DNA of 64,000 nucleotides from Roseateles sp. (lineage in GTDB: Bacteria; Pseudomonadota; Gammaproteobacteria; Burkholderiales; Burkholderiaceae_C): positions 5,805-69,804 of the forward strand of contig NZ_JAFAGT010000014.1 in the NCBI RefSeq assembly GCF_019237615.1. The letters run 5' to 3'. Made by a program: the position numbers and the translations under genes. The stretch's first letter is position 1. Each line of letters starts with the position of its first letter. Positions 18,948 to 57,551 of this stretch are shown one piece after another. The notes beneath the pieces are model-generated. The model did not search any database. It was not told where the DNA came from and saw nothing but the letters and a program-made list of their open reading frames with translations.

Positions 18948-19598
18948 TCAGAACAGGCTCTGCGGAATGATCAGGATGTCGCCGGGGCGCATCTCCACGT
19001 TGGCCGACACGTCACCGCGCTTGATCAGATCCTTCAAGCGCACCGAATACTGCTTGTTGCCCTCGGCCGTGCGAAGGATGGTGGCACTGTTGCCGGAGGC
19101 GAAGTCGGTCAACCCACCCACGGCGATCATCACGTCCAGCAGCGTCATCTTCTGCTTGTAGGGCAGGAACTGCGGCTTGGCCGCTTCGCCAACGACGCGG
19201 ATCTGTTCGCTGTAGGGGCCGACGAAGTTCGTCACGATCACCGTCACGACCGGATCCCTAACGTACTTGCCCAGCTGCTGCTCGACATCGCGCGCCACCT
19301 GCACCGAGGTCTTGCCCTGGACCACCATCTCATCCACCAGCGGCGCGGCGATCTTGCCGTCCGGCCGCACGGGCACGGACATGGACAGCTCCGGGTTGCG
19401 CCAGACCTGGATGTTCAGGTTGTCACCGGCACCGATGATGTAGCTGTAGTCGTCGCTCGTCACCTGGGCCGGGGCGGCCGGATGCTGGACCGACGCGCAA
19501 CCCGTCAACCCGGCCAACGTCGATGCTGCCAACAAGGCCAGCGCCCCCGAAGCCCAGGCCCGCAAACCTCGCCGCACCTGGACATCACCGGCCGACAT
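18948..19598 (-). CDS. polysaccharide export outer-membrane lipoprotein (Wza-like, Poly_export + SLBB)
   Basis: Start chosen at ATG 19598, giving the lipoprotein signal MSAGDVQVRRGLRAWASGALALLAASTLAGLTG|C. Motifs YIIGAGDNLNIQVW, VRPDGKIAAPLV and VQGKT. The track start at 20024 would place more than 170 residues ahead of the lipobox Cys. Confidence 0.85.
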   Translation of the reverse strand: MSAGDVQVRRGLRAWASGALALLAASTLAGLTGCASVQHPAAPAQVTSDDYSYIIGAGDNLNIQVWRNPELSMSVPVRPDGKIAAPLVDEMVVQGKTSVQVARDVEQQLGKYVRDPVVTVIVTNFVGPYSEQIRVVGEAAKPQFLPYKQKMTLLDVMIAVGGLTDFASGNSATILRTAEGNKQYSVRLKDLIKRGDVSANVEMRPGDILIIPQSLF

Positions 19599-19819
19599 CA
19601 GTTGCACATCGCTGCGATTCGAAGCATGAATGGTGTCCAAGGCAAATCCTCTGTGGGTCTGGTCGTAAAAAGAGACCGAGGCGCGGGCTGGAAGCACGCC
19701 CGATAGGGAGCGTTGCATGATGCCATAGGCGCACCCGCGCCCTGGTAGCCAAATCGGGGGGTAGGCACCGCCAATGGCGTGCAATTTCACACCCGCCGCC
19801 CATTTGCCGACAAGCGCAC

Positions 19820-20701
19820 TCAGCGCGGCTTGGCACGCCCTTCCAGCAATGGCCGGATCAACATCAACATCAGTTGCTGAATCGGATTGGCGTTGCCGAA
19901 CGGACGCCAGGTGAACTTGATTTTCTGGTGGTAGGCATCGAACTGCATGGCCCAGGGCGCCGCTCGCAGATCGCCGCGCCCCAGCAACACCTTCAGCACC
20001 GAAACACCCATGACGCCGGCACACAGGTCGCAGGACATCATGGTCGACGGGCCGCGCCTCTCCTGGAAGTTCACCGCATGCGGCGCCACGAGGTAGTCGC
20101 GCTGCAGCATTGCGGGAGACAAGCCCGCGATGAAGCGGGCATATTGCTCGTTCTCGCTGCGCCCCTCCACCCGGAAATACTCCTCGAAACTCATGGCGCC
20201 GGGCTTGAAATACATGAAAGAAACGCCCATGCCGAGCGGCGCCGCCGTCAGCGCCGGAATGCCCTTCTCATAACAAGCCCGGAACAGCATGCGCCGCGCC
20301 GGCAACGCAAAGAAATCGATCCCATCGACATACACGTCGACGTCGCGCAGGAACTCATCGACATTCGCCTCGGTGACCCCTTCGGGGAATATCCGGACAT
20401 CGGCCTCCGGATTGATGTCGCGCACCATTTCGGCCAGCACCTGCGCCTTCGGGCGATCAAGCGTCGACATGAAGGCGCCGACCTGCCGATTCATGTTGTG
20501 CACACCGAATTCATCGAAGTCGGCGATATTGAAACGGCTCATCCCCAGCCGCCCCAGCGTCAGCAGGTGGGCCCCGCCGACACCGCCGAGCCCGGCGATC
20601 GCCACGCGTGCCGAGCGAAGTTTTTCCTGCTCAGCCTCGGTCACCCAGCCGATGTTCCTGGAAAATGCCCGCCCATAGTCAAAAGTCGAAGCCTGGTTCA
20701 A
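19820..20701 (-). CDS. ThiF/MoeB/HesA-family E1-like adenylyltransferase
   Basis: Rossmann motif RVAIAGLGGVGGAHLLTLGRLGMSRFNIADFDEFGVHNMNRQ, DGIDFF, and a single CDLC motif. The start is uncertain: TTG 20701 lies 5 nt after AAGGGG, and GTG 20707 is the alternative. The track start at 20767 is unlikely. Confidence 0.75.
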   Translation of the reverse strand: MNQASTFDYGRAFSRNIGWVTEAEQEKLRSARVAIAGLGGVGGAHLLTLGRLGMSRFNIADFDEFGVHNMNRQVGAFMSTLDRPKAQVLAEMVRDINPEADVRIFPEGVTEANVDEFLRDVDVYVDGIDFFALPARRMLFRACYEKGIPALTAAPLGMGVSFMYFKPGAMSFEEYFRVEGRSENEQYARFIAGLSPAMLQRDYLVAPHAVNFQERRGPSTMMSCDLCAGVMGVSVLKVLLGRGDLRAAPWAMQFDAYHQKIKFTWRPFGNANPIQQLMLMLIRPLLEGRAKPR

Positions 20702-20778
20702 GTTCACCCCTTTGCGGCCGGGCGGAGTCGTCGTCAAGGGCAAGCCGAAGCCCGAGACACCCAGCACCTGCCATCAGG

Positions 20779-20795
20779 TTGCCGCCGCGCGGCAA
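20779..20795. promoter_or_regulatory. inverted repeat TTGCCG-N5-CGGCAA in the divergent ThiF-like/nitroreductase-like intergenic region
   Basis: ttgccgccgcgcggcaa lies 28 nt upstream of ATG 20823. Candidate operator or small stem-loop. Confidence 0.3.
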
Positions 20796-20822
20796 TCTTC
20801 AATACAAGAAAGGTCGCAAACC

Positions 20823-21917
20823 ATGGATTCGCAAGCCACCGTCCTGCAGATCCTCGATTTTGCACGATGGGCCCCCAGCGGGGACAACACCCAGCCCTGG
20901 CGATTCGAGATCATCGGCCCCAACCATGTGGCCGTCCATGGGTTCGACACGCGCGAGCATTGCGTCTATGACCTGGACGGCCACCCGAGCCAGATTTCCA
21001 TCGGCGCCTTGATTGAAACCGCCGCCATCGCCGCCAGCCACCACCAGCTTCGCACCGTGGCAAGGCGGCGGGTGGCCTCGCCGGAAACCCGCCCGGTGTT
21101 CGATCTCGAATTCGTTGCCGACCCCAGCGTCATCGCCGACCCTCTTCTGGCCAGCGTCAAGGTCCGCAGCGTGCAGCGCCGGCCGCTGAAGACGCAGCCG
21201 CTGACCACCCAGCAGAAGCAGGCCTTTGCAGCCGCCATCGGCCCCGACTACACGGCACTATGGCTGGAGAGCGGCGGCGAGCGGCTGAAGGTCGCCAAGA
21301 TGCTGTTCCATTCGGCCAAGATCCGGCTGGTCACGCCCGAGGCCTACCGCGTCCACAAGGACATCATCGAATGGCAGGCACGGTTCAGCGAAGAGCGCGT
21401 GCCGGATCAAGCACTCGGCACCGACCCGATGACGACCCGACTGATGCGCTTCGTGATGCAGAACTGGGGCCGGGTGGAGATGTTCAATCGCTTCTTCGCA
21501 GGCACCTGGGCGCCACGCATCCAGCTGGACTTCGTGCCCGGTCTGGCCTGCGCGGCCCATTTCCTGCTGCTTGCCAAGGCCCCTGCACGCACGATTGATG
21601 ACTACGTCGCGGCCGGCCGCGCGACGCAGCGCTTCTGGCTGACAGCCGCGCAGCAAGGCCTGCTGCTGCAGCCCGAGGTCACGCCGCTGGTCTTCACCCG
21701 CTATGCCCGCGAAGGCATCGACTTCTCAAGCAAGCCCGGCGCGCAAGAGATGGCACGACGGCTCGGCGAACGTTTCGTCGGCACGGTCGGCGAGCATGCG
21801 GCGGCCCATGCAGTTTTCATGGGGCGCGTCGGCCGCGGCCAGCAGCCGGTCTCGCGCTCGCTGCGGCGGCCGCTGGAGAGCCTGCTGATCACGGAGCAGC
21901 ATGATGACAAGGCTTGA
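20823..21917 (+). CDS. nitroreductase-fold protein, two-lobed (Acg / McbC-SagB-like)
   Basis: Start ATG 20823 with AAAGG 9 nt upstream. ILDFARWAPSGDNTQPWRFEI is the nitroreductase N-terminal signature, and RFWLTAAQQGLLLQP occurs late in the protein. At ~364 aa it is too long for a single nitroreductase domain. Confidence 0.7.
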   Translation: MDSQATVLQILDFARWAPSGDNTQPWRFEIIGPNHVAVHGFDTREHCVYDLDGHPSQISIGALIETAAIAASHHQLRTVARRRVASPETRPVFDLEFVADPSVIADPLLASVKVRSVQRRPLKTQPLTTQQKQAFAAAIGPDYTALWLESGGERLKVAKMLFHSAKIRLVTPEAYRVHKDIIEWQARFSEERVPDQALGTDPMTTRLMRFVMQNWGRVEMFNRFFAGTWAPRIQLDFVPGLACAAHFLLLAKAPARTIDDYVAAGRATQRFWLTAAQQGLLLQPEVTPLVFTRYAREGIDFSSKPGAQEMARRLGERFVGTVGEHAAAHAVFMGRVGRGQQPVSRSLRRPLESLLITEQHDDKA

Positions 21918-23148
21918 GCGCCCACTGCGGATTGCCCTCTTTGCCGAGGCCGTGACGCTGGCTCATGTCGCCAGGCCTATCGCGCTTGCGCGCGCCATCG
22001 CCCCGGCAGGACACCAACTGCTGCTGGCCTGTGATCCGCGGTATTCCAGCTTTGCCGCCGATGGCCCCTGGCAGTCCCAGCCATTGCGCAGCATCCCCAG
22101 CGCCGAGTTCAACGAGGCCCTGGCCAAGGGCAAACCGGTCTACAGCCATGAGACCTTGAGCAGCTATGTGAACGACGATCTGAAATTGATCGAGTCGTTC
22201 AAGCCCGACCTGGTGATTGGCGACTTCCGGCTGTCACTCTCCGTCAGCGCAAGGCTGGCGCGCGTGCCCTACATGGCGATCGCCAACGCCTACTGGTCAC
22301 CTGGCTATCTGGGCGGCTACGCGCTGCCGGTGATTCCGTTGAGCAGAGTACTGCCCATCCCGCTCGCGGCAACGCTGTTCCACACCTTCAGGCCGCTGGC
22401 TTTCATTCCCCATTGCCAGCCGATGAACCGCCTGCGCCGGCAGCACAACCTTCCCTCGCTTGGCAACAACTTGCGACGCGTCTACACGGACGCGGACCAC
22501 ATACTGATGCCCGACATCCCCGACCTCTACCCGGTGGCGTCAGGCTCACACGGCAGCAGCTACATCGGGCCGCTCATGTGGGCCCCCTCCACACCACCAC
22601 CCGCCTGGTGGGAGGAGCCCGACCCCACCGAGCAGGCGATCGTTTACGTCACGCTTGGCAGCTCAGGCCCAGGAGCCACACTTGCGCTGGTCCTGCAGGC
22701 GCTGGCCGACCTCCCCGTGAAGGTGTTCGCCTCCACCGCCGGCGCCCAGGCCCCCTCAAGCGTACCGGCCAATGCACGGCTGGCCAGCTATCTGCCCGGC
22801 GACGCTGCTGCCGAGCGCGCGAAACTGATGATCTGCAACGGTGGCAGCCTGAGCACCCAGCAAGCCATTGCCGCAGGCATTCCCATACTCGGCCTGGCCA
22901 GCAACATGGACCAGTTCCTGAATATGGCGCCGATCGAGCGGCACAACGCCGGCATCTGCTTGCGGACCGATCGGCTGAGCCCCGAAAGAATCCGCCAGGC
23001 CGCCATCACGCTGCTGCAGTCAGCCGTCGCCACGACAGCTGCACGGCAACTTCGACAGTTGCTGCCGAAGCCAGAGGCCGGGACCCGCGAGACCTTCCAC
23101 GCCATCGCCAAGCAATTGCTGCAGGACAGCCGATCAAACAGCCACTGA
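21901..23148 (+). CDS. GT1-family (MGT/UDP-glycosyltransferase-like, GT-B) glycosyltransferase
   Basis: 415 aa. The C-terminal nucleotide-sugar motif ICNGGSLSTQQAIAAGIPILGLASNMDQFLNMAPIERHNAG parallels the GT1 HGG...G-P...P...DQ signature. Overlaps the preceding gene by 17 nt. Confidence 0.75.
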   Translation: MMTRLERPLRIALFAEAVTLAHVARPIALARAIAPAGHQLLLACDPRYSSFAADGPWQSQPLRSIPSAEFNEALAKGKPVYSHETLSSYVNDDLKLIESFKPDLVIGDFRLSLSVSARLARVPYMAIANAYWSPGYLGGYALPVIPLSRVLPIPLAATLFHTFRPLAFIPHCQPMNRLRRQHNLPSLGNNLRRVYTDADHILMPDIPDLYPVASGSHGSSYIGPLMWAPSTPPPAWWEEPDPTEQAIVYVTLGSSGPGATLALVLQALADLPVKVFASTAGAQAPSSVPANARLASYLPGDAAAERAKLMICNGGSLSTQQAIAAGIPILGLASNMDQFLNMAPIERHNAGICLRTDRLSPERIRQAAITLLQSAVATTAARQLRQLLPKPEAGTRETFHAIAKQLLQDSRSNSH

Positions 23149-23191: not shown

Positions 23192-23220
23192 AAAAAATGG
23201 GCCCCGAGGGGCCCATTTTC
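23192..23220. terminator. bidirectional rho-independent terminator between the convergent GT1 and PEP-CTERM genes
   Basis: AAAAAATGGGCCCCgaGGGGCCCATTTTCC: a 9-bp GC stem flanked by an A-run and a T-run. Confidence 0.85.
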
Positions 23221-23236: not shown

Positions 23237-24292
23237 TTACTGCTTGCGGCTGCGACGCTTGCCTGCGACGCCCAGGCCAGCCAAGGCCAGACCCACCAGA
23301 GCCAGCGAAGCAGGCTCAGGGATGTGGAGGCGGTCGACATTCGTCGTGGTCGTCGCCTGCAGCGACAGGGAGTACGTACCCGCAGCCAGATCGGAAATCA
23401 TCAAACCGAAGTTCTTGAAATCGAGGAACGAGTCGTTGTAGGAATCCGGATTGCCCGACCGCGAGTCGGTGACATTCAGGTTTCCCTCGTTCTTGGTCAC
23501 CGAGCAGACGCTGCCCGCGATGCCGCCACCGGTGAACTGGCAAGGCTGGGCGCTGCCGGTACCGTCCGGGCTCCAGGTCCAGCTTTGGTTCGTGCCATTC
23601 TTGGACAGGCTGATGGAGACGTTCGAGCCCGCCGAAGAGGTATACAGGCCACCAAGCACATCCGAGATCGCACCGCTGAGCTTCAGCAGCGCTTGGAAGC
23701 TCAGGACGAAGTCAGTGGTCGTCCCCGTGACGAACGAAGTCAGCAGCGTCGTGGTCGACTTGACCTCGGTATTGGCGCTGGCTTGACCATTGACATTCAG
23801 CAGCGACTCAGCAATCTGAATCGTGTTGGTGGTACCACCCTGCACGAGCTTCGCCGAGGTGATTTGCGAATCCGCGTTGCTGAAGCTCTGGGTGGCGTTG
23901 GCACCGATGATGGCGAAATTGTTGTCAGCCCGCGCAGACAGCAAACCGGGTGCATTGGCCACGTTGGCATTCAGGGTCACCGGGTTGCCGCAAGTGGTGT
24001 AGACGGGCCCCGCAGCAGGATTGACATTGCCGTTGCAAGCGCCCGAACCCGCGCTGTTCACCGTCGCGCCACCGGTCGGGGTGTAGTCGGCCAGATTCTT
24101 CAGGTTGAAAGAATAGTTCGAGGCAGCGCCCACGTCATTGGTCGTTCCGTGCGCAAAGACGTTGATGTCCAGGCCCTGGATCTGCAGCTGCGACACCGAA
24201 TACACATAGGCGTTGGCGGGCACGGCGGCAAACAGCGCAGCACATGCGCCAGCGGCTGCGGCCACCGCCTTGAACTTGGAAAGCTTGGTCAT
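23237..24292 (-). CDS. PEP-CTERM sorting-domain protein (exosortase substrate)
   Basis: Signal peptide MTKLSKFKAVAAAAGACAALFAAVPANA. The body is rich in Asn/Ser/Thr/Gly. The C-terminus HIPEPASLALVGLALAGLGVAGKRRSRKQ has the PEP motif, a TM helix and a basic tail. Confidence 0.9.
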   Translation of the reverse strand: MTKLSKFKAVAAAAGACAALFAAVPANAYVYSVSQLQIQGLDINVFAHGTTNDVGAASNYSFNLKNLADYTPTGGATVNSAGSGACNGNVNPAAGPVYTTCGNPVTLNANVANAPGLLSARADNNFAIIGANATQSFSNADSQITSAKLVQGGTTNTIQIAESLLNVNGQASANTEVKSTTTLLTSFVTGTTTDFVLSFQALLKLSGAISDVLGGLYTSSAGSNVSISLSKNGTNQSWTWSPDGTGSAQPCQFTGGGIAGSVCSVTKNEGNLNVTDSRSGNPDSYNDSFLDFKNFGLMISDLAAGTYSLSLQATTTTNVDRLHIPEPASLALVGLALAGLGVAGKRRSRKQ

Positions 24293-24346: not shown

Positions 24347-24364
24347 AAGCACACAGCGTGCCAA
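24347..24364 (-). promoter_or_regulatory. sigma-54 (-24/-12) promoter of the PEP-CTERM gene
   Basis: The minus strand reads TTGGCACGCTGTGTGCTT (TGGCACG-N4-GTGCT) with correct GG/GC spacing. It lies ~55-70 nt upstream of ATG 24292. PrsR, encoded nearby, is a sigma-54 activator. Confidence 0.7.
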
Positions 24365-24448: not shown

Positions 24449-27220
24449 TTACAAGGACTTCAGCAGGCGCGTCACCTCTGCCTGTGCCGGAAAGCGTTCT
24501 CCGGCCTTCTCCAAGGTCTTCAGTTCCGCCTGGGCCGCGGGCTTGTCGCCTGCCTGGATGTAGAGCCTCGCAAGGTTCAGGCGCAGCACCAGATTCTCGG
24601 GATCCAAGGCCAGGGCCCGTCGCTGCAACTCCAAGGCCTTGGGCAGTTGGCTTTCCGCCGCCAGCGTTGACGCCAGGGTATCCAGCACACCCGGCGAATC
24701 GGGGCTGAGCTTCAGCGCCTGTTCAGCATAGGCCGCCGCTCCCGGCTTGTTCTGCTTGAGCATGGAAAACGCAATGTTGTTCAGTGCGCCCGCATTATTG
24801 GGCTGCAGGGCAACAACCCTGCGGAACTGCTTTTCCGCCATGTCGAACTGCCCTTGCACCAAGGCCAGGTCACCCAGGTATGCAGGAAAACCAGCGTCCT
24901 TGGGATGTGCAGCCATCCATTCGCCGGCCATGCTCTCCGCATCGGCAGTTTTCCTGGCGCCACGCAAGGCCGTGTGCAGTTTCACCGCCATGATGGTCAC
25001 AGGATAATTCTTGAGTGCCCGGCGGTAGACCTCCACGGCAGCTTCGGCATTGCCGCGCGACAGCTGAATTTCTGCTTCCATGTCCTGCCCGGTGGTTTCA
25101 TTCGGGCGCTGCGCCTGCACGGTCCGGGCGATAGCGATCGCAGCGTCGGGCCGTTTGCCAGCCAGCGCAATCTTGACCAGCGCCTGCTGGGCCGGCAAAT
25201 AGTTGGGCACAAGGGCAAGCGCGCGATGCAGGCTCTGCTCGGCAGCTACCGACTTGCCCGCCCGCAGTTGCACGGCCGCCAGCCGGATGAATGGGCGAGT
25301 CGATTTCGACTCCAGAGTCGCCAGCTTGTTGAATGCAGCAATGGCCAGCTCGGTTTCACCCGACGCCATCTCGGCTCGGCCCAATGCATCGATCAAGTCG
25401 GCTTGATCCGGCAGCGCACTATTGGCGTCTCGTGCCGCCGCCTGAGCGGCCCTGTAGTTTCCTTCAGCCAGCTGCAAATCGATCAGCTGCAGTCGTGGCG
25501 CAGGCTCGGCTGGGTTGAGGCGAATCGCCTGCGACAGCATCTCGGCAATCTCGGACTTGGGCGCGCCCTCCGCGGCTCGCAACTTGACCATCGACAGCAG
25601 GGCATCCAAGTTTCTTGAATCGACTTTCAGTACCGCCTCAAAACGCTTCTTCGCAGCATCGATATTTTTGTCAAGCAGATCCAGAGCTGCCAGTCCCGCG
25701 ACGGCCGGCACGAATACAGGATCGATCGCCAAGGCTTTTTCAAAGCTGGCGCGCGCCGCGTGCGCATCATTGCGCATCAAATAGATCTTGGCGCGCAGGT
25801 TATGCGGCAAGGGGTTCTTGGGCAATTTGGCTTCAACCGCATCAACTGACTTGAGCGCGCCATCCAGGTCCTTGTTCTGCAGCAACACGCTGATCAGCGC
25901 AAGGTCGGCGTTCGTCCCCTTGTCCGCCGCGGCGATCTTCTGAAGTGAGGCGACCGTCGCCTGATACCCGGAGGCGTTCTGCTTTGCGAGTGCCAGCTTG
26001 ACCAGATTCGCGCTGTTCGATGGATCAAGCTTGACCGCGGTTTCGAAGCTGGCTCGCGATTGATCAAGGTTACCCATCGCCAATTGAGCCTCGCCCGCGA
26101 GCGAATAGGTCTGCGCGTTGGTCTCACCGCCCGCGATCAGCGGCTGCAAGGTCATCAAGGCCTTGGCGGGCTGCCCCATGCGCAACTGCGTCTGAGCCAG
26201 CAGCCTGCGCACAGCAACATTGTCCGGCCTGATGGACAACGCCTTGCTCAATGAGCGCTCAGCCTGCAGGAGCGCCCCATTGACCAGCTGGATGGTTCCT
26301 GCAAGCTGCAGGACCTTGACCTCGTCGGGGGCGGCCTTCTGTGCCAACTCGATCGATGCTACGGCCTTGGTCATGTCGCCGTTGGCAAATGCCAGCTGGG
26401 CGTCGAAATATTTGACCAGCAGGTTATTCCGCGAGTCCTTGCGCAGCTCCGCGAGCTGCTCCGATGCCGCCTTGAAATCCTGCTGTGCGATCAGGATTTC
26501 GATCAGGGCCGCGCGCGCGCCCGCATGGGATGGCTGGATCGTCAGCGCCGTGCGGAATGCCTGCATCGCGTCCGGTATGTTCCTCCGGAGCAGGATCAGC
26601 AACTCCCCCTTCTGAAACCAGGCCTGCGGATCCTTGGGAGTCAGGGCCAGCACCTTGTCCACCATGGCCATGGCGTCGTCGTCCCGGTGCTCGAAGCCCG
26701 CCATGCGCGCTTCGAGCAGCAGCGCGGGGGGGAAGTCGGGAACCTTTGCCAGCGCCGCCTGAATTTCACGACGCGCAGCGGCAGCCTTGTTCAAGGATGC
26801 ATAGGCCACGGCCACCGTGGTCTTCAGGTCAGCAAAGGCCGCAGCATCCTTCAGGTCCGATGTGCCCAACTCATCAACGATGGTCTGGTATTGCTTGACG
26901 GCGAGCAATGCTCGCGCCAGCAGCGGCTGCACCTCATCGATCGCCTGCCCCTGCTGCGGAATCTTTCTCAACTCGAGGATCGCGGAGGCCGGGTCGCCGG
27001 TCTCAAGCAAGACCTTGCCCAACAGGAGTCGGGCCTTCACGTGACCCGGATCCTGGCTCAGCGCCTGCTTCAGCTGAATCACGGCCGACTTGGGATCCCC
27101 CTTGCGCAGGTAGGAATTCGCCGAGTCCAGCAACTCATCGGCCCCCATCTGGCCGCAGGCGGCCAGGACCGCCACGGCAAGCACCATGGGCAAGAAGAAT
27201 GAACGATGTTTAGCCTGCAT
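24449..27220 (-). CDS. prsT: PEP-CTERM-system TPR-repeat lipoprotein
   Basis: Start ATG 27220 gives MQAKHRSFFLPMVLAVAVLAA|CG (lipobox). About 920 aa of TPR repeats, located next to the PEP-CTERM gene. Confidence 0.85.
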   Translation of the reverse strand: MQAKHRSFFLPMVLAVAVLAACGQMGADELLDSANSYLRKGDPKSAVIQLKQALSQDPGHVKARLLLGKVLLETGDPASAILELRKIPQQGQAIDEVQPLLARALLAVKQYQTIVDELGTSDLKDAAAFADLKTTVAVAYASLNKAAAARREIQAALAKVPDFPPALLLEARMAGFEHRDDDAMAMVDKVLALTPKDPQAWFQKGELLILLRRNIPDAMQAFRTALTIQPSHAGARAALIEILIAQQDFKAASEQLAELRKDSRNNLLVKYFDAQLAFANGDMTKAVASIELAQKAAPDEVKVLQLAGTIQLVNGALLQAERSLSKALSIRPDNVAVRRLLAQTQLRMGQPAKALMTLQPLIAGGETNAQTYSLAGEAQLAMGNLDQSRASFETAVKLDPSNSANLVKLALAKQNASGYQATVASLQKIAAADKGTNADLALISVLLQNKDLDGALKSVDAVEAKLPKNPLPHNLRAKIYLMRNDAHAARASFEKALAIDPVFVPAVAGLAALDLLDKNIDAAKKRFEAVLKVDSRNLDALLSMVKLRAAEGAPKSEIAEMLSQAIRLNPAEPAPRLQLIDLQLAEGNYRAAQAAARDANSALPDQADLIDALGRAEMASGETELAIAAFNKLATLESKSTRPFIRLAAVQLRAGKSVAAEQSLHRALALVPNYLPAQQALVKIALAGKRPDAAIAIARTVQAQRPNETTGQDMEAEIQLSRGNAEAAVEVYRRALKNYPVTIMAVKLHTALRGARKTADAESMAGEWMAAHPKDAGFPAYLGDLALVQGQFDMAEKQFRRVVALQPNNAGALNNIAFSMLKQNKPGAAAYAEQALKLSPDSPGVLDTLASTLAAESQLPKALELQRRALALDPENLVLRLNLARLYIQAGDKPAAQAELKTLEKAGERFPAQAEVTRLLKSL

Positions 27221-27322
27221 CACTGCACCCAAGATAGTCCCCTATAAGCATCAATGGCGAGGCGATCTCGCCAGGCATCCGAATGGCTCGCGCCGCAGAG
27301 AAATGGCCAGGTGGAGGCAATC

Positions 27323-28108
27323 TCAGTGCGAGTTGGGGCGGAGCCTTCCCAGCGCATCCGGGTGAGCCTCGAATGAAAGGTTCACCAACCGGTCGATCAC
27401 TGCATACAGCGGCTGGATCAGCGGACGCAGATTGCCGACGACCTTGCTGGAGCTGAGCACGGAAGGCACGCGAATGCCGCGGTGCTCGATCTCGCCGCCG
27501 ATCGGATGGATGTCAAAACCCAGGCGCAGGAAATGACTCGCCAGGCGTGGTTCCGTCAGCACGAACACGTTCTCGACGCTGAGCCGCCGCGCGGCCGCCG
27601 CAGCGCCGAGATACAGGCTCATCGGAATGAACGGGAAGCGCGGCTGGCCGCCCCTGGCTTCGAAGTCTTGCTCGCCGACGGAGACAGGCTTGTCGGCTTC
27701 ACCCTGGCGCTGGCGAAACTCACTCATGACCGCCAACCGTGAGACTTCGCCGACGTCATCCCGCGGCAGCCGCGCGGGATCCAGTTGGTCGCGCCGGATC
27801 ACCTCGCGGCAGCTGAGCTCGAACGGCAGCGGGAACGAGGGCTGCTCCGGCCGGGCCAGCACGAGGCGCGAGCAACCCACCAGGTCACCGGTGTCACGTT
27901 TGCGGAGGAGGCAGTGGACCGAATGGCGGTCATAGTCGTCCATCTCCAGGCCGTCCTTGCGGACCGCCTCCCAGCCAAGCTCACGGCAATACACATCGTG
28001 CCGGATCCGATACACCATCTCGACACTGGGAGCATCCAAGGCCAGCGAGAACTCGAACAGTTCCTCGAATCGATGCCCCAGGTTCCCGCTTGAAGTCGAT
28101 GGGTTCAC
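27323..28108 (-). CDS. PEP-CTERM/exosortase-system-associated acyltransferase (autoinducer-synthase / N-acyl amino acid synthase-like GNAT)
   Basis: 261 aa, GTG start with GAGG 8 nt upstream. YRIRHDVYCRELGWE and GEVSRLAV motifs, followed by a large insert. Confidence 0.8.
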   Translation of the reverse strand: MNPSTSSGNLGHRFEELFEFSLALDAPSVEMVYRIRHDVYCRELGWEAVRKDGLEMDDYDRHSVHCLLRKRDTGDLVGCSRLVLARPEQPSFPLPFELSCREVIRRDQLDPARLPRDDVGEVSRLAVMSEFRQRQGEADKPVSVGEQDFEARGGQPRFPFIPMSLYLGAAAAARRLSVENVFVLTEPRLASHFLRLGFDIHPIGGEIEHRGIRVPSVLSSSKVVGNLRPLIQPLYAVIDRLVNLSFEAHPDALGRLRPNSH

Positions 28109-53727: not shown

Positions 53728-54426
53728 ATGCAGTACATGGTCCCTATCGTTGAAGTGCGGCGCAATGCAGCGCCGCCGGGTGATTTCGCCAGCCTGCCGC
53801 TGGATCTGGACAGCGGCTTCGGCGGCCTGGCGGGCGACGCCCTCGAGCTCGTCGAGCGCCGCTACGGCGACCGCGGCCTGGCCGTGACGCGTGAGCGCTA
53901 CAACAGCCGCGACCAGGATGGCGACATCGTCTGCACGGCGCGCGATGGGGACGAGGTCGTCGGCACGCTGTCCGTGCGCTTCGACGGCATGGGCGGGCTG
54001 CACGCCGACCAGCTGTTCAAGGCCGAGCTCGACGCGTGGCGGGCCGACGGCATCAAGCTCTGCGAGTTCGGCGGCCTGGCCATGGGCGCACATCCCCACG
54101 ACCCCAAGCGCGTGCTGGCCCATATCTTTCACCTCGGCTACCTGCACGCCCACCGGCGGGCGCGCTGCGAGCGCCTGATCGTCGAGGTCAATCCGCGCCA
54201 CGTCGCGTTCTACCGGCGTTGCCTGGGACTTATCCCGCTGACCACGGCGCGCCACAACCCGCGCGTGCAGGCACCGGCCGTGCTCATGAGCATCGCCTTC
54301 GCCACCGTGCGCGAGCAGATCGCGCTCTGGGGCGGCCGCCACGACCGCACGGCCTCCACGCGCAGCCTCTACCCGCTGTTCTGGGACGCCGCAACCGAAG
54401 CCACCATGCTGGCCAGGCTGCCCTAA
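53728..54426 (+). CDS. FeeM-like long-chain N-acyl amino acid synthase (GNAT-fold)
   Basis: 232 aa. VGTLSVRFDG..GLHADQLF, KLCEFGGLAM, ERLIVEVNPRHVAFYRRCLG. The alternative start ATG 53737 has better AGGA spacing. Confidence 0.7.
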   Translation: MQYMVPIVEVRRNAAPPGDFASLPLDLDSGFGGLAGDALELVERRYGDRGLAVTRERYNSRDQDGDIVCTARDGDEVVGTLSVRFDGMGGLHADQLFKAELDAWRADGIKLCEFGGLAMGAHPHDPKRVLAHIFHLGYLHAHRRARCERLIVEVNPRHVAFYRRCLGLIPLTTARHNPRVQAPAVLMSIAFATVREQIALWGGRHDRTASTRSLYPLFWDAATEATMLARLP

Positions 54427-56120: not shown

Positions 56121-57362
56121 TCACCCCTTCTTGAACTGGAGCACCTGGGCGCCGACCCGGAGCTGGTCGAGGTAATCCGCCCAGGCCTGCATGAGGGTCT
56201 TGCGCTGCGCCATGAACTCGGCGCGGTCATAGGCCATGCCCAACGGCCCAGACTTGCCGTGCGCGAGCTGGGCCTCGATGACGTCAGGCGACACGCCGGG
56301 CAGACGCTCGACGATCAGCGTGCGGGCCATCGCGCGGAAGCCGTGCGGGGTCATCTCGCCGTTGCTGTAGCCCAGCCGGCGCAGCGCGACGCGAACGGTG
56401 TTCTCGCTCATGCACTTCTCGCCGGTCAGCAGCGACGGGAACACGTAGCGGCCGTGGCCCGTGAGCGGCTGCAGTTCCTTCAGGACCGCCACAGCTTGCG
56501 GCGCCAGCGGCACCAGGTGCGGGCGGCCGTTCTCCTTGCCGTGCAGGGTGCGCTTCATCTTGGCGGCCGGGATCGTCCACAGGCCGGCGTCGATGTCGAC
56601 CTCGGCCCACTCCATCGCCCGGATGTTGCCCGGGCGTTGGAACAGCAGGGCCGACAGCAGCAGCGCAGCGCGGGTCGCTGGCTGGCCAGAGTAGGCGTCG
56701 ATGGCGCGCATCAGGTCACCAGCGCCGGCCGGCTCCAGCAGCGCCGCCATGTGCTTCACCTTCACCGGCTGCAGCGCGCCGTTGAGGTCGGGAGCCGGGT
56801 CACGCTCGCAGCGACCGGTCTGGACGCCGTAGCGAAACACCTGGCCGGCGGTCTGGCGCAGCGTGTGCGCGGTCTCGATGGCCCCACGCTTCTCCACCCG
56901 GCGCAGCGCGTCCAGCAGCAACGGGGCGGTGATGTTCCCCATGGGCATGGCGCCGATGTGGGGGAACAGATCCTTCTCCATGCGCTCGATCCAGCGGGCG
57001 GCGTACTTCGGGCTCCAGCCGACCTTCTTCGTCTCGAAGCACTCGCGGGCCACGGCCTCGAAGGTCTGGGCGCCGGCAGCCTTGCTGATGACCTTGGCGA
57101 CGCGACGGGCCTGGACAGGGTCTTCACCCTCGCTCCGCGCCTTGCGGGCCTTGTCGCGCCCTTCCCTGGCGTCCTTGAGGCTGACCAGCGGGTAGTTGCC
57201 CAGCGCCAGGCGCTTCTCCTTGCCGCCGAACCGGTACTTCACAAACCAGCGCTTGGAGCCGGTCGCCGCCACTTCGAGGTACAGGCCCCCAGCATCAGCG
57301 AACCGGGCGCGAGGCTTGTCAGCGGGGCAACTGGCGTTGCGGCAGGCGGCGTCTGTGAGCAT
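56121..57362 (-). CDS. int: tyrosine-type site-specific integrase (P4-like, DUF4102 N-terminal domain)
   Basis: FADAGGLYLEVAATGSKRWFVKYRFGGKEKRLALGNYP (arm-binding domain), plus catalytic HGFRAMART and LAHG...AYDR. Confidence 0.9.
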   Translation of the reverse strand: MLTDAACRNASCPADKPRARFADAGGLYLEVAATGSKRWFVKYRFGGKEKRLALGNYPLVSLKDAREGRDKARKARSEGEDPVQARRVAKVISKAAGAQTFEAVARECFETKKVGWSPKYAARWIERMEKDLFPHIGAMPMGNITAPLLLDALRRVEKRGAIETAHTLRQTAGQVFRYGVQTGRCERDPAPDLNGALQPVKVKHMAALLEPAGAGDLMRAIDAYSGQPATRAALLLSALLFQRPGNIRAMEWAEVDIDAGLWTIPAAKMKRTLHGKENGRPHLVPLAPQAVAVLKELQPLTGHGRYVFPSLLTGEKCMSENTVRVALRRLGYSNGEMTPHGFRAMARTLIVERLPGVSPDVIEAQLAHGKSGPLGMAYDRAEFMAQRKTLMQAWADYLDQLRVGAQVLQFKKG

Positions 57363-57446
57363 GGGGAACGGCCTCTTGGGGGAACGTATTCCCCCACTGC
57401 GGGGGAATCGCCGATTTGTTCCCCTGGATGTTCCCCCTGTCCCCCC
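57363..57446. repeat. cluster of GGGGAAY / RTTCCCC heptamers between int and the tRNA
   Basis: GGGGAAC 57363-57369; GGGGGAAC 57378-57385; TTCCCCC 57389-57395; GGGGGAAT 57401-57408; GTTCCCC 57418-57424; GTTCCCCC 57429-57436; GTCCCCCC 57439-57446. Candidate arm-type recombinase-binding sites. Confidence 0.5.
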
Positions 57447-57551
57447 TGGCTGTAAAGGGCCATCCTCGGACGTCCACGAACAATAAAGGCGCCTAAACCG
57501 TTGAAACGGCTAGGCGCCTTGGACGTTGGCGGATGTTGTCGGCGCTAAATT

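Follow-up and report, generated by a model that had tools for sequence, protein, structure and literature searches.

The ThiF-like and nitroreductase-like proteins encoded between the eps export operon and the PEP-CTERM gene of this Roseateles sp. locus probably represent, on the basis of family assignment, a split form of the acyl-oxazolone/N-acyl-dehydro-amino-acid synthetases OxzB, TyzB plus TyzC, and TrzS. The N-acylation, cyclisation and desaturation steps expected of such a system have the same good probability as this assignment. OxzAB (bioRxiv 10.1101/2020.06.11.147165), TyzACB (PMC10404671) and TrzAS (PMC12856293) have been reconstituted biochemically, so that the pair was already a characterised one, a point absent from the original prediction for this DNA. 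That prediction was made for a 64,000-nucleotide stretch, hereafter the window. The trio that it described, the pair plus a GT1 glycosyltransferase gene, is real and lies at the given place; profile searches bore out all three domain assignments, and two gene starts were refined (Table 1).

Table 1. Features of the locus and of the remote synthase gene in the window.
Feature	Position	Strand	Basis or remark
ThiF-like protein, putative ATP-dependent cyclase half of split oxazolone synthetase (TyzB-like)	19820-20701	-	NF006077, Pfam ThiF
Divergent intergenic region, 121 nt	20702-20822	.	Sequence
Putative flavin-dependent oxidase, nitroreductase superfamily (TyzC-like), desaturase half of split oxazolone synthetase	20823-21917	+	
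Cytoplasmic GT1-family (GT-B) glycosyltransferase	21901-23148	+	Pfam EryCIII-like_C, UDPGT
Bidirectional intrinsic-terminator hairpin, common to GT1 and PEP-CTERM gene	23194-23219	.	Folding
EDSAP-1 family PEP-CTERM protein	23237-24292	-	NF041538, 226 bits
Sigma-54-like -24/-12 element TGGCACGCTGTGTGC	24349-24363	-	~57 nt upstream of PEP-CTERM gene start
PrsT, XrtA/PEP-CTERM TPR lipoprotein	24449-27232	-	TIGR02917, 680 bits
PEP-CTERM/exosortase-associated N-acyl amino acid synthase	27323-28108	-	TIGR03694, 232 bits (cutoff 112)
Second, FeeM-type N-acyl amino acid synthase	53728-54426	+	PF21926, 139 bits

The longest open reading frame of the ThiF-like gene spans 19820-20767 (minus strand), and its start was placed at the TTG at 20701 because homologues are typically 293 aa long. 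The gene lies upstream of the eps export operon in the same direction, and the gap to the Wza-like TIGR03027 gene, which has a lipoprotein-type start near 19598, measures ~221 nt, in agreement with the ~220 nt predicted. In profile searches, the protein matched NCBIfam NF006077 with 440 bits (cutoff 266) and Pfam ThiF with 145 bits, and it gave partial matches to the N-terminal halves of the fusion models PRK14851, PRK14852 and Rv1355c family. The P-loop GLGGVG, the DFD and NMNRQ motifs and Asp129 (E. coli ThiF D127) are conserved; judged by these positions, the adenylation residues are intact. The invariant Arg168 is a candidate, and probably the equivalent, of TrzS Arg540. The nearest solved relative is TcdA, another ATP-dependent cyclodehydratase (PMC12596934).

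The adenylation core is common to ThiF and MoeB, and database names suggest a MoeB/ThiF-type E1 whose adenylation target would be a sulfur-carrier protein of the molybdopterin or thiamin pathway: JGI calls ThiF homologues "molybdopterin/thiamine biosynthesis adenylyltransferase" and some NCBI records call nitroreductase homologues "molybdopterin biosynthesis protein MoeY". The scores against ThiF/MoeB equivalogs are, however, far below their cutoffs (e.g., 92 versus 275 bits), and the protein has one CxxC motif only, as opposed to the four conserved Zn-binding cysteines of E. coli MoeB and ThiF. No open reading frame with a Gly-Gly terminus and a length of 50 aa or more was found between 10 and 35 kb of the window. 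Moreover, MoeW (TyzB), which lay outside the initial Moco pathway annotation, makes tyrazolone (Grigg et al. 2023, PMC10404671). This makes a sulfur-carrier role extremely improbable.

The nitroreductase-like gene starts with ATG at 20823 and encodes 364 aa. An Acg-family FMN oxidoreductase model aligned with the protein over its full length (110 bits), and positions 373-718 of the Rv1355c-family model matched it with 111 bits; like the Rv1355c family, PRK14851 and PRK14852 were matched in their C-terminal halves. The AlphaFold model (pLDDT 82) found its best structural match in the two-lobed M. smegmatis Acg homologue 2YMV (MsAcg), over the whole length (E 2.5e-12). As modelled, the protein has the two-lobed Acg fold.

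The fusion proteins mentioned in the original prediction do exist, and they are the closest relatives of the pair. The 150 nearest relatives of the ThiF-like protein, taken as 50%-identity representatives, include 78 with a fused nitroreductase domain: 70 in the order ThiF-nitroreductase, 7 in the order nitroreductase-ThiF, and 1 with ThiF followed by two nitroreductase matches. Synthase-domain fusions occur in 2 of the 150. By Pfam, protein P0365 is a FeeM-ThiF-nitroreductase fusion, and in P0269 a TIGR03694-like synthase is fused to the ThiF clade of the window. With the C-terminal half of P0242, a ThiF-nitroreductase fusion, the nitroreductase-like protein shares 40% identity (E 8e-76), and in close relatives such as Nitrosospira multiformis (L008) both domains lie in one open reading frame. 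It is on NCBIfam models and these fusion relatives that the placement in the TyzB/TyzC/OxzB/TrzS clade rests.

The same matches bear on the analogy first drawn with azole-peptide maturation, in which a TOMM/azole-type pair of an E1-like docking protein and a SagB-type dehydrogenase would act on a ribosomal peptide. The reaction logic is superficially alike, as both involve heterocycle formation and FMN-dependent dehydrogenation, and ThiF-like enzymes act in several RiPP pathways (PMC12596934). The analogy did not hold at the level of protein families: the pair matched oxazolone-type fusion families and the Acg family, and no TOMM docking, cyclodehydratase or SagB match was obtained. The reported absence of YcaO was confirmed among the window ORFs scanned, and clustering of ORFs of at least 80 aa in 80 genome loci (the best 80 of at least 574) returned no conserved short precursor ORF. 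Maturation of a ribosomal peptide is thus very hard to reconcile with the data.

The original prediction contained no first enzyme for the pathway. The synthase at 27323-28108 is, by its sequence, a candidate for this OxzA/TyzA/TrzA role; it also matches Pfam Acetyltransf_5, FeeM and Autoind_synth, and its nearest solved relatives are AHL synthases. Synthases of the TIGR03694 family adjoin ThiF in three related loci (L018, L011 and L044), but the one in the window does not adjoin the pair, being 5.4 kb away on the other strand. The second synthase is possibly an alternative or additional substrate source; it has 37% identity with a FeeM-type enzyme whose gene immediately precedes ThiF in L028. 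As in the exosortase-associated synthase family, the window member sits among prsT, prsR and prsK. Prior work on this family reportedly drew links to PEP-CTERM systems for the synthase alone. What is new here, as far as could be established, is the set of tailoring genes (ThiF, oxidase and GT1) and its syntenic link with PepA/EDSAP-1.

The closest known arrangement is that of Mycobacterium tuberculosis TyzA, TyzB and TyzC (Rv2336, Rv2338c "MoeW" and Rv2337c), which make C12:0-tyrazolone (Grigg et al. 2023, PMC10404671); TyzB and TyzC were likened to the window proteins through family models. In both systems, the cyclase (ThiF-like) and the flavin oxidase (Acg-like, one chain) are separate proteins, and the opposite strand nearby encodes an acyltransferase with the AHL-synthase/FeeM fold. 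The chemistry predicted here is likewise N-acylation, ATP-dependent cyclisation and O2-dependent desaturation. In contrast with the operon of M. tuberculosis, ThiF and oxidase genes are divergent here, the more distant synthase is of an exosortase-associated family, translation of a GT1 gene is coupled to that of the oxidase gene, and the set lies inside an XrtA/PEP-CTERM EPS locus, beside a PEP-CTERM protein gene.

OxzA/OxzB, the oxazolone synthetase of Pseudoalteromonas rubra (de Rond et al., bioRxiv 10.1101/2020.06.11.147165), and TrzA/TrzS (Rv1356c/Rv1355c; PMC12856293) also combine an N-acyltransferase partner with ThiF and nitroreductase domains of the same families, as seen in the matches of the window proteins to halves of the PRK14851 and Rv1355c-family models. 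OxzB and TrzS are single fused polypeptides, whereas here the proteins are separate and encoded on opposite strands. For neither published system is a connection to exosortase or PEP-CTERM genes described, and some oxzB genes cluster with glycosyltransferases (bioRxiv 10.1101/2020.06.11.147165).

Clusters of the same three genes, N-acyl amino acid synthase, ThiF and nitroreductase, were proposed for N-acyl-2,3-dehydrotyrosines, namely, the kyonggic acids of Massilia, thalassotalic acids and stieleriacines (PMC12479983). The Oxalobacteraceae, to which Massilia belongs, account for many of the loci in the present survey, and Massilia sp. HP4 (L072) has the order PrsT, FeeM-type synthase, ThiF, nitroreductase. 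The likeness suggests that the stable end product may be a ring-opened dehydro-amino acid lipid. In contrast with the present locus, that report makes no mention of exosortase, PEP-CTERM or glycosyltransferase and describes no glycosylated congener.

The GT1 gene overlaps the nitroreductase-like gene by exactly 17 nt, as predicted. Its C-terminal NDP-sugar domain alone matches EryCIII/UDPGT/MGT models, the MGT match being below the subfamily cutoff, and the nearest solved relatives (CalG1, OleD, UGT2B and YjiC) are all small-molecule glycosyltransferases. The predicted bidirectional terminator between GT1 and the convergent PEP-CTERM gene was recovered as a strong hairpin between an A-run and a T-run, folding at -23 kcal/mol as plus-strand RNA and -27.6 kcal/mol as minus-strand RNA (z-scores, -3.6 and -5.2); no shuffled sequence folded as well. 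The PEP-CTERM protein has a Sec signal peptide in addition to its PEP-CTERM tail, and its gene is the sole match of a tail-motif regex in the window, as had been claimed. The sigma-54-like element upstream of it has one mismatch to TGGCAC-N5-TTGC, and such elements are not above chance in number across the window. Its position fits the RpoN dependence of pepA in Aquincola (PMC9850573).

The divergent region between the pair was given as ~120 nt with an inverted repeat, and both are present: a palindrome at 20776-20798 (-15.2 kcal/mol) has the core TTGCCG-N5-CGGCAA at 20779-20795. The significance attached to the repeat did not stand. Inverted repeats of 6 bp with 3- to 8-nt spacers occur at 4.3 per kb in the G+C-rich window, and the closest relative (L001) lacks this one, while L002-L005 have degenerate versions of it; a function for it is doubtful.

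Gene neighborhoods were surveyed in 160 related loci, in which a block of PrsT, synthase, ThiF, nitroreductase and GT1, followed by a PepA/EDSAP-1 PEP-CTERM gene, is recurrent. Among the 80 nitroreductase-anchored loci, which are the best-scoring 80 of at least 574, so that the strength of the association is limited to the betaproteobacterial subfamily, 68 have an XrtA-system marker within 10 kb, and ThiF adjoins the nitroreductase in about 71. Of the same best 80, 45 have a GT1 homologue, 25 a PrsT homologue and 30 a synthase (FeeM-type in 25) no more than 10 kb from the pair, the synthase mostly directly upstream of ThiF. Orthologues of the trio, whose neighborhoods had been set as a refutation test, are therefore found mostly beside XrtA/PEP-CTERM genes. 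The statement that the trio is outside the canonical XrtA/PEP-CTERM set is valid for the named TIGRFAM set, but the trio recurs at such loci as an accessory block.

An ordinary specialised-metabolite cluster, making, e.g., an N-acyl amino acid derivative with antibiotic or surfactant activity and having no functional tie to sorting or EPS, would fit the reported antimicrobial activity of N-acyl tyrosines, the P. rubra and Mycobacterium systems not described with an exosortase link, and two fully flanked loci (L044 and L067) with no XrtA marker within 10 kb. This is nevertheless quite unlikely. The XrtA association spans Sphaerotilaceae, Oxalobacteraceae, Nitrosomonadales, Gallionellaceae, Thiobacillaceae and Accumulibacter, thus several orders, and survives rearranged gene orders. 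An XrtA marker is also present at 34 of the 35 well-flanked loci of an independent sample, drawn from metagenomes and anchored on GT1. Six loci carry the full co-directional string of synthase, ThiF, nitroreductase, GT1 and PEP-CTERM genes. Furthermore, knockout of the exosortase-associated synthase in Methylomonas LW13 abolished a polysaccharide band (PMC11072679).

The same neighborhoods raise the question of what GT1 modifies. In 61 of the 87 loci with both genes, the 3' end of GT1 is followed within 500 nt by a PepA/EDSAP-1-type PEP-CTERM gene (36 co-directional, 25 convergent, never upstream); 60 of these 61 proteins were recovered by iterative search from the window's protein, and many match PepA or EDSAP-1 models. 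This adjacency is more consistent than that of GT1 behind the nitroreductase, so GT1 may serve the protein rather than a lipid. Alone or with the pair, it would then glycosylate the Ser/Thr/Asn-rich region of the adjacent protein in the cytoplasm before export, and the locus would be a protein-modification cassette and not a glycolipid pathway. The protein in the window is ~30% Ser+Thr+Asn, and HMW1C and the autotransporter heptosyltransferases are precedents for cytoplasmic glycosylation of exported adhesins. Against this, the closest solved GT1 relatives all glycosylate small lipophilic acceptors, the PEP-CTERM protein is exported unfolded through its Sec signal, GT1 is translationally coupled to the nitroreductase here and lies directly 3' of it on the same strand in 39 loci, and the small-molecule substrates of ThiF plus nitroreductase are biochemically defined in three systems. 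The ThiF/nitroreductase pair is near GT1 in 32 of the 35 well-flanked GT1-anchored loci. Synteny does not discriminate between lipid and protein, since such loci keep the pair but lack the PEP-CTERM gene just as seldom (2 loci) as they keep the PEP-CTERM gene but lack the pair (2 loci). A protein target for GT1 is on balance improbable, if less so than the metabolite cluster. The cytoplasmic ThiF/nitroreductase pair is unlikely to act directly on the PEP-CTERM protein, and of the two targets proposed for the modification module, a small molecule or lipid tied to EPS is the better supported.

In the oxazolone-lipid pathway favored here, the TIGR03694 synthase, and possibly the FeeM-type enzyme, would supply an N-acyl amino acid, as expected from their families. 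By homology, and with its catalytic motif in place, the ThiF-like enzyme would adenylate the free carboxylate with ATP, and the amide oxygen would close the 5(4H)-oxazolone ring. The Acg-like flavin oxidase, with FMN and O2, would introduce the 2,3 double bond, as homology and fold suggest. The resulting tyrazolone-like oxazolone could open by hydrolysis into an N-acyl-dehydro-amino acid resembling the kyonggic acids. GT1 may then add a sugar from an NDP-sugar to the lipid, e.g., at a phenolic hydroxyl, a step about as probable as its opposite. Given the observed association, the product may act together with the XrtA system and, more specifically, with the PepA/EDSAP-1 protein encoded next to the trio, either as a signal that PrsK/PrsR would read or as an envelope lipid on which the function of the PEP-CTERM protein would depend. 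Oxazolone lipids would in this way be linked to exosortase biology, giving such lipids a testable role in an exosortase biofilm system.

The trio of ThiF-like, nitroreductase-like and GT1 glycosyltransferase genes lies in what NCBIfam scans identify as a textbook XrtA/PEP-CTERM exopolysaccharide locus, with a G+C content of 63 to 70% throughout. The scans named XrtA with its EpsI domain, the TIGR03087 glycosyltransferase, a FemAB-family protein, a deacetylase, the TIGR03015 ATPase, the TIGR03016 outer-membrane protein, a tyrosine kinase, a chain-length determinant, the TIGR03027 export protein, PrsT, PrsR, PrsK, the TIGR03013 priming transferase and the XrtA amidotransferase. The nearest relatives are Roseateles, Pelomonas and Paucibacter (Burkholderiales). 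A Roseateles metagenome-assembled genome (L001 among the related loci surveyed) has an identical gene order and protein identities of 69 to 97%.

All three genes are present as originally predicted, as are the 17-nt overlap of the GT1 and nitroreductase-like genes and the gap of about 221 nt between the ThiF-like gene and the lipoprotein-type start of the export gene. The length of the homologues (293 aa) sets the ThiF-like start at a TTG codon, leaving a divergent spacer of 121 nt before the nitroreductase-like ATG. The ThiF-like gene shares its reading direction with the eps genes that run from the export gene to xrtA. In the 221-nt gap, pattern scanning gave no terminator match. Given the shared direction, the position of the ThiF-like gene directly upstream and the lack of a terminator match in the gap, this gene may be co-transcribed with the eps export operon in this lineage.

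Coordinates of the features discussed, in the window and in related loci (L numbers)
Feature	Locus	Coordinates	Strand	Remark
Gap between export gene and ThiF-like gene	window	19599-19819
ThiF-like gene	window	19820-20701	-	TTG start at 20701
Inverted repeat	window	20779-20795
Nitroreductase-like gene	window	20823-21917	+	ATG at 20823
GT1 glycosyltransferase gene	window	21901-23148	+
A/T-flanked hairpin	window	23194-23219
PEP-CTERM gene	window	23237-24292	-	tyrosine-rich motif A-Y-V-Y-S-V-S
Sigma-54-like element TGGCACGCTGTGTGC	window	24349-24363	-	∼57 nt upstream of PEP-CTERM gene
TIGR03694 PEP-CTERM/exosortase-associated acyltransferase gene	window	27323-28108		between prsT and trypsin-like protease gene
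Second, orphan FeeM-type synthase gene	window	53728-54426	+	PF21926, 139 bits; 31 kb from trio; noted together with 56121-57509 (-)
PEP-CTERM gene	L013	14094-15248		tyrosine-rich motif A-Y-V-Y-G-V-S
PEP-CTERM gene	L033	12200-13288		tyrosine-rich motif G-A-Y-G-Y-S-Y
ThiF-nitroreductase single ORF	L008	9023-11074
ThiF-nitroreductase single ORF	L014	9059-11119
Conserved flanking set	L008	13.5-20.9 kb
Conserved flanking set	L014	16.4-21.1 kb
Conserved flanking set	L059	11.1-17.1 kb
Conserved flanking set	L079	10.7-17.2 kb
Conserved flanking set	L028	16.1-20.4 kb

The ThiF-like protein scored 440 bits against NF006077, above the cutoff, and matches the N-terminal halves of PRK14851 (679 aa; 285 bits), PRK14852 (989 aa) and the Rv1355c family model (722 aa). 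The nitroreductase-like protein matches the C-terminal halves of the same three models (111 bits for the Rv1355c family) and the Acg family model from end to end. An exhaustive search among 1.8 billion cluster representatives showed that the nearest relatives of the ThiF-like protein, with 40 to 59% identity, are mostly proteins of 640 to 690 aa. By domain scan, 78 of the best 150 carry a fused nitroreductase domain (70 as ThiF-nitroreductase, 7 in the reverse order and 1 with two nitroreductase matches), 67 are ThiF alone and 2 are fused to a synthase domain. Pfam confirmed the ThiF-nitroreductase fusion in the representatives P0242, P0244 and P0287, and gave FeeM-ThiF-nitroreductase for P0365 and methyltransferase-ThiF-FeeM for P0319. 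Between the nitroreductase-like protein of the window and the C-terminal half of P0242, identity is 40% (E value of 8e-76).

Rv1355c is TrzS, a fused cyclase-oxidase that makes N-acyl tryptazolones. C12:0-tyrazolone is made by the ThiF-like TyzB together with TyzC, an oxidase of the nitroreductase superfamily, and the first oxazolone synthetase was OxzB of Pseudoalteromonas rubra. In all three systems, the substrate comes from an N-acyl amino acid transferase whose gene lies alongside. The matches to both halves of the fusion models, the fused relatives and the identity of Rv1355c with TrzS indicate, by homology, that the pair is a split member of the acyl-oxazolone synthetases. Three features of OxzAB, TyzACB and TrzAS recur in the window: a cyclase-clade ThiF adjacent to a nitroreductase-superfamily oxidase, a partner of the FDO-type, monomeric, two-lobed Acg-like kind, and a transferase of the AHL-synthase/FeeM fold, here located 5.4 kb away instead of adjacent. 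Fusion and fission of the pair have happened repeatedly within the subfamily, since close relatives (L008, L014, L023, L048 and L077) carry it in a single ORF. These single-ORF relatives, which include Nitrosospira multiformis, have 56 to 57% identity to the nitroreductase-like protein of the window.

Alignment to Escherichia coli ThiF showed that the ThiF-like protein keeps the GLGGVG P-loop, the DFD (DxD) and NMNRQ (NxxRQ) motifs and the Lys. Its Asp129 corresponds to D127 of the E. coli protein; in TrzS, the Asp of the adenylation motif is D217. Arg168 of the nitroreductase-like protein is invariant in our alignment A1 and is a candidate counterpart of TrzS R540, lying at about the expected offset in the Rv1355c model. 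Among solved structures, the nearest relative of the ThiF-like protein is TcdA, whose ATP-dependent cyclodehydration is described as yielding an oxazolone form of t6A (PMC12596934). Sequence searches of the PDB with the nitroreductase-like protein gave only marginal N-terminal matches. Its AlphaFold model (pLDDT of 82, pTM of 0.83) found its best Foldseek match in 2YMV, the Acg homologue of Mycobacterium smegmatis, over the whole length (TM-score of 0.70). Ordinary nitroreductases cover only part of the model, with query-normalised TM-scores below 0.4. The modelled fold thus bears out the description of this protein as two-lobed, and agrees with that reported for TyzC by Grigg et al.

Two other readings of the pair were considered. 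A sulfur-carrier adenylyltransferase of the MoeB/ThiF type was rejected, given that the ThiF-like protein scored 92 bits against a cutoff of 275 with the ThiF model and 60 to 76 against 377 to 449 with MoeB models, and has only one CxxC, not the four-cysteine Zn motif. Between positions 10 and 35 kb of the window, none of the ORFs of 50 aa or more ends in GG, as would be expected of a ThiS/MoaD-like partner. The analogy with the docking/dehydrogenase pairs of azole-peptide (TOMM) maturation, raised in the original prediction, was abandoned: no TOMM-family model is among the matches for the pair, and no YcaO match occurred among the window ORFs scanned, which comprised all but a few smaller ones. 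Some database records name homologues of the nitroreductase-like protein "molybdopterin biosynthesis protein MoeY," and homologues of the ThiF-like protein bear no more than generic names (ThiF or molybdopterin/thiamine adenylyltransferase). The present results make these labels misleading or uninformative.

The split oxazolone-synthetase assignment directs attention to the acyltransferase of the TIGR03694 family, a candidate for the first enzyme of the pathway that had been overlooked in the original prediction. Its product also matches the Pfam families FeeM and Autoind_synth, and its nearest structures are AHL synthases, the same fold as reported for TyzA. In related loci, the synthase gene usually lies immediately 5′ of the ThiF gene. 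Plain tblastn with the TIGR03694 synthase found a neighboring copy in five loci, and iterative searching in seven, with TIGR03694-like genes adjoining ThiF in L018, L011 and L044; the ThiF relative P0269 is a TIGR03694-like synthase fused to the same ThiF clade. Clustering of the ORFs recovered what tblastn had overlooked, a FeeM-type synthase (cluster c8) immediately 5′ of ThiF. This cluster matches PF21926 at 187 bits and also the N terminus of the PRK14852 model, which suggests that this model describes a synthase-ThiF-nitroreductase triple fusion. The two synthase types seem interchangeable in the locus.

Four loci of the Paucibacter/Roseateles/Pelomonas group (L010, L017, L020 and L061) have a FeeM-type synthase gene between the trypsin-like protease gene and prsT, a region where the window and L001 have the TIGR03694 type in a different gene order. 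The orphan FeeM-type synthase of the window lies between genes for a molybdopterin-binding oxidoreductase and a phage-type integrase; its product is 37% identical to the FeeM-type synthase encoded directly upstream of ThiF in L028.

The neighborhoods of the trio were surveyed from two anchors, using 10-kb flanks, heuristic ORF calling and regular-expression detection of PEP-CTERM genes. Scanning of GTDB species genomes found a relative of the nitroreductase-like gene in at least 574. The 80 best loci (53 to 87% identity) were taken, and as a best-scoring subset they describe one subfamily. They span Sphaerotilaceae, Oxalobacteraceae, Nitrosomonadales, Gallionellaceae, Thiobacillaceae, Accumulibacter, Nitrotoga and a few gammaproteobacterial metagenome-assembled genomes. 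ThiF adjoins the nitroreductase gene in about 71 of the 80, normally co-directionally and in that order; among surveyed loci only the Roseateles group has the two genes divergent, and the two genes share one ORF in 13 loci across both surveys. Within 10 kb of the nitroreductase gene were found a synthase (30/80), a GT1 homologue (45/80) and a PEP-CTERM gene (55/80).

The GT1-anchored survey used metagenome contigs. The 35 loci flanked by 5 kb or more on each side contained the pair in 32 cases, a PEP-CTERM gene in 32, both in 30, a synthase in 19 and an XrtA marker in 34. The GT1 gene directly follows the nitroreductase gene in 39 loci. The full co-directional string of synthase, ThiF, nitroreductase, GT1 and PEP-CTERM genes occurs in six, and in some loci the co-directional genes look like a single operon.

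The trio had been described as lying outside the canonical XrtA gene set. This holds in that none of its products matches an XrtA-named model, whereas 15 other genes of the window do; yet the nitroreductase-anchored survey found an XrtA marker within 10 kb in 68 of the 80 loci, the other 12 being mostly on short contigs. The three genes thus form an accessory block that recurs at XrtA loci and is linked to PEP-CTERM proteins of the PepA/EDSAP-1 kind.

A conserved gene set flanks the module in some loci, among them those of the Nitrosomonadales type. It encodes a DUF1302 outer-membrane protein, a LolA_like protein, an ABC ATPase and two LolCE/MacB-like permeases, a combination suggestive of an exporter for envelope lipids. 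Genes for a GMC oxidoreductase and a membrane-anchored hexapeptide acyltransferase are further recurrent neighbors. No homologues of these LolCDE-like, LolA-like, DUF1302, hexapeptide-transferase or GMC-oxidoreductase neighbors were found in the window.

The C-terminal NDP-sugar-binding domain of the GT1 protein matches PF06722 (51 bits) and PF00201 (33.5 bits), both above the Pfam cutoffs. Its scores against the MGT (50 versus a cutoff of 260) and activator-dependent (64 versus 440) subfamily models are far too low, and it is therefore placed by profile in the GT1 superfamily but outside these two subfamilies. Profile searches gave no informative match for the N-terminal acceptor domain. Since the protein most resembles small-molecule glycosyltransferases and its gene is translationally coupled to that of the oxidase, glycosylation of a lipid is favored. 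The rival substrate, the PEP-CTERM protein, stays in contention given that the GT1 gene is linked to the PEP-CTERM gene as tightly as to the oxidase gene. Where both are present, the PEP-CTERM gene lies within 500 nt of the GT1 3′ end in 61 of 87 loci, 36 being co-directional, 25 convergent as in the window and none upstream.

The PEP-CTERM proteins encoded next to GT1 are of the PepA/EDSAP-1 kind, and the three inspected all have a tyrosine-rich motif just after the predicted signal peptide. A literature search on "EDSAP" returned only unrelated medical papers. If the name of NF041538 ("EDSAP-1 family PEP-CTERM protein") encodes a link to these enzymes, its curators may already have noticed the synteny.

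The predicted bidirectional terminator was recovered as a strong hairpin between the convergent GT1 and PEP-CTERM genes. Its loop is short and one of its sides has no more than four Ts; a rule-based terminator scan missed it, but it is clear by folding (−23 and −27.6 kcal/mol on the two strands). The inverted repeat between the divergent genes is likewise present but statistically unremarkable, comparable repeats occurring 4.3 times per kb. It was dropped as a regulatory site because such repeats are common in this G+C-rich DNA and the element is absent or degenerate in the nearest relatives, being missing from the closest, L001. No sigma-54 promoter was found in this intergenic region; the sole well-placed match is upstream of the PEP-CTERM gene, among 11 matches window-wide versus 7.6 expected, which is not above chance. 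This element fits the RpoN dependence of pepA in Aquincola (PMC9850573).

Homology supports well a route in which the synthase would N-acylate an amino acid, the ThiF-like enzyme would cyclize the product in an ATP-dependent step and the nitroreductase-like oxidase would desaturate it with FMN and O2. Ring opening may leave an N-acyl-dehydro-amino acid as the stable product; kyonggic acids are made by Massilia, a genus of the Oxalobacteraceae that also has the synthase, ThiF and nitroreductase genes (PMC12479983). In Massilia sp. HP4 (L072), these genes come after prsT. From conserved synteny we infer that the product works within the XrtA system, and one support for this comes from Methylomonas LW13, in which formation of a polysaccharide band requires the exosortase-associated synthase (PMC11072679).

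A more speculative reading, which we consider improbable even with its two versions counted together, is that exosortase A has a small-molecule partner, so far missing, and that this partner is the product. In the first version, a glycosylated N-acyl-dehydro-amino-acid lipid or the oxazolone, itself electrophilic and an activated acyl donor, would be covalently joined to the adjacent PepA/EDSAP-1 protein during or after XrtA cleavage, anchoring the protein in the envelope or to the exopolysaccharide. In the milder version, PrsK/PrsR would sense the lipid as their cognate signal and turn on flocculation as well as the PEP-CTERM gene, which is sigma-54-dependent in this version. If either were true, oxazolone lipids would have a role in physiology, and a defined lipid would be known as partner or ligand of the exosortase pathway.

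The enzymology of the pair is already known, and according to citing papers N-acyl amino acid synthases were first linked to PEP-CTERM systems in 2011. For Rubrivivax gelatinosus, two "UBA/THIF-type" genes beside wza were tabulated without comment in 2013 (PMC3684757), and the genomics paper on N-acyl-dehydrotyrosine makes no mention of exosortase (PMC12479983). Full-text literature searches combining oxazolone or ThiF with PEP-CTERM found no paper making the connection. The novelty lies in recognizing the tailoring pair, together with a GT1, as an accessory block that recurs at XrtA loci and is tied to PepA/EDSAP-1.

The physiological role of oxazolone lipids has been called "a major unresolved question" by the groups that characterized them (PMC12856293). 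PEP-CTERM proteins of the PepA/EDSAP-1 kind are needed for floc formation in Aquincola and, as cited in the same paper, in Zoogloea (PMC9850573). A second puzzle concerns the tendency of N-acyl amino acid synthases to accompany PEP-CTERM systems. To our knowledge, the fate of XrtA substrates after cleavage is not known to the exosortase field. In many Betaproteobacteria, the synthase, the oxazolone-forming pair and the glycosyltransferase are consistently linked to prsT and PepA/EDSAP-1, and this conserved link makes both puzzles testable in tractable sludge and biofilm bacteria. It predicts a new class of glycosylated acyl-dehydro-amino-acid lipids, and the roles of oxazolone lipids and of exosortase-linked synthases become experimentally approachable.
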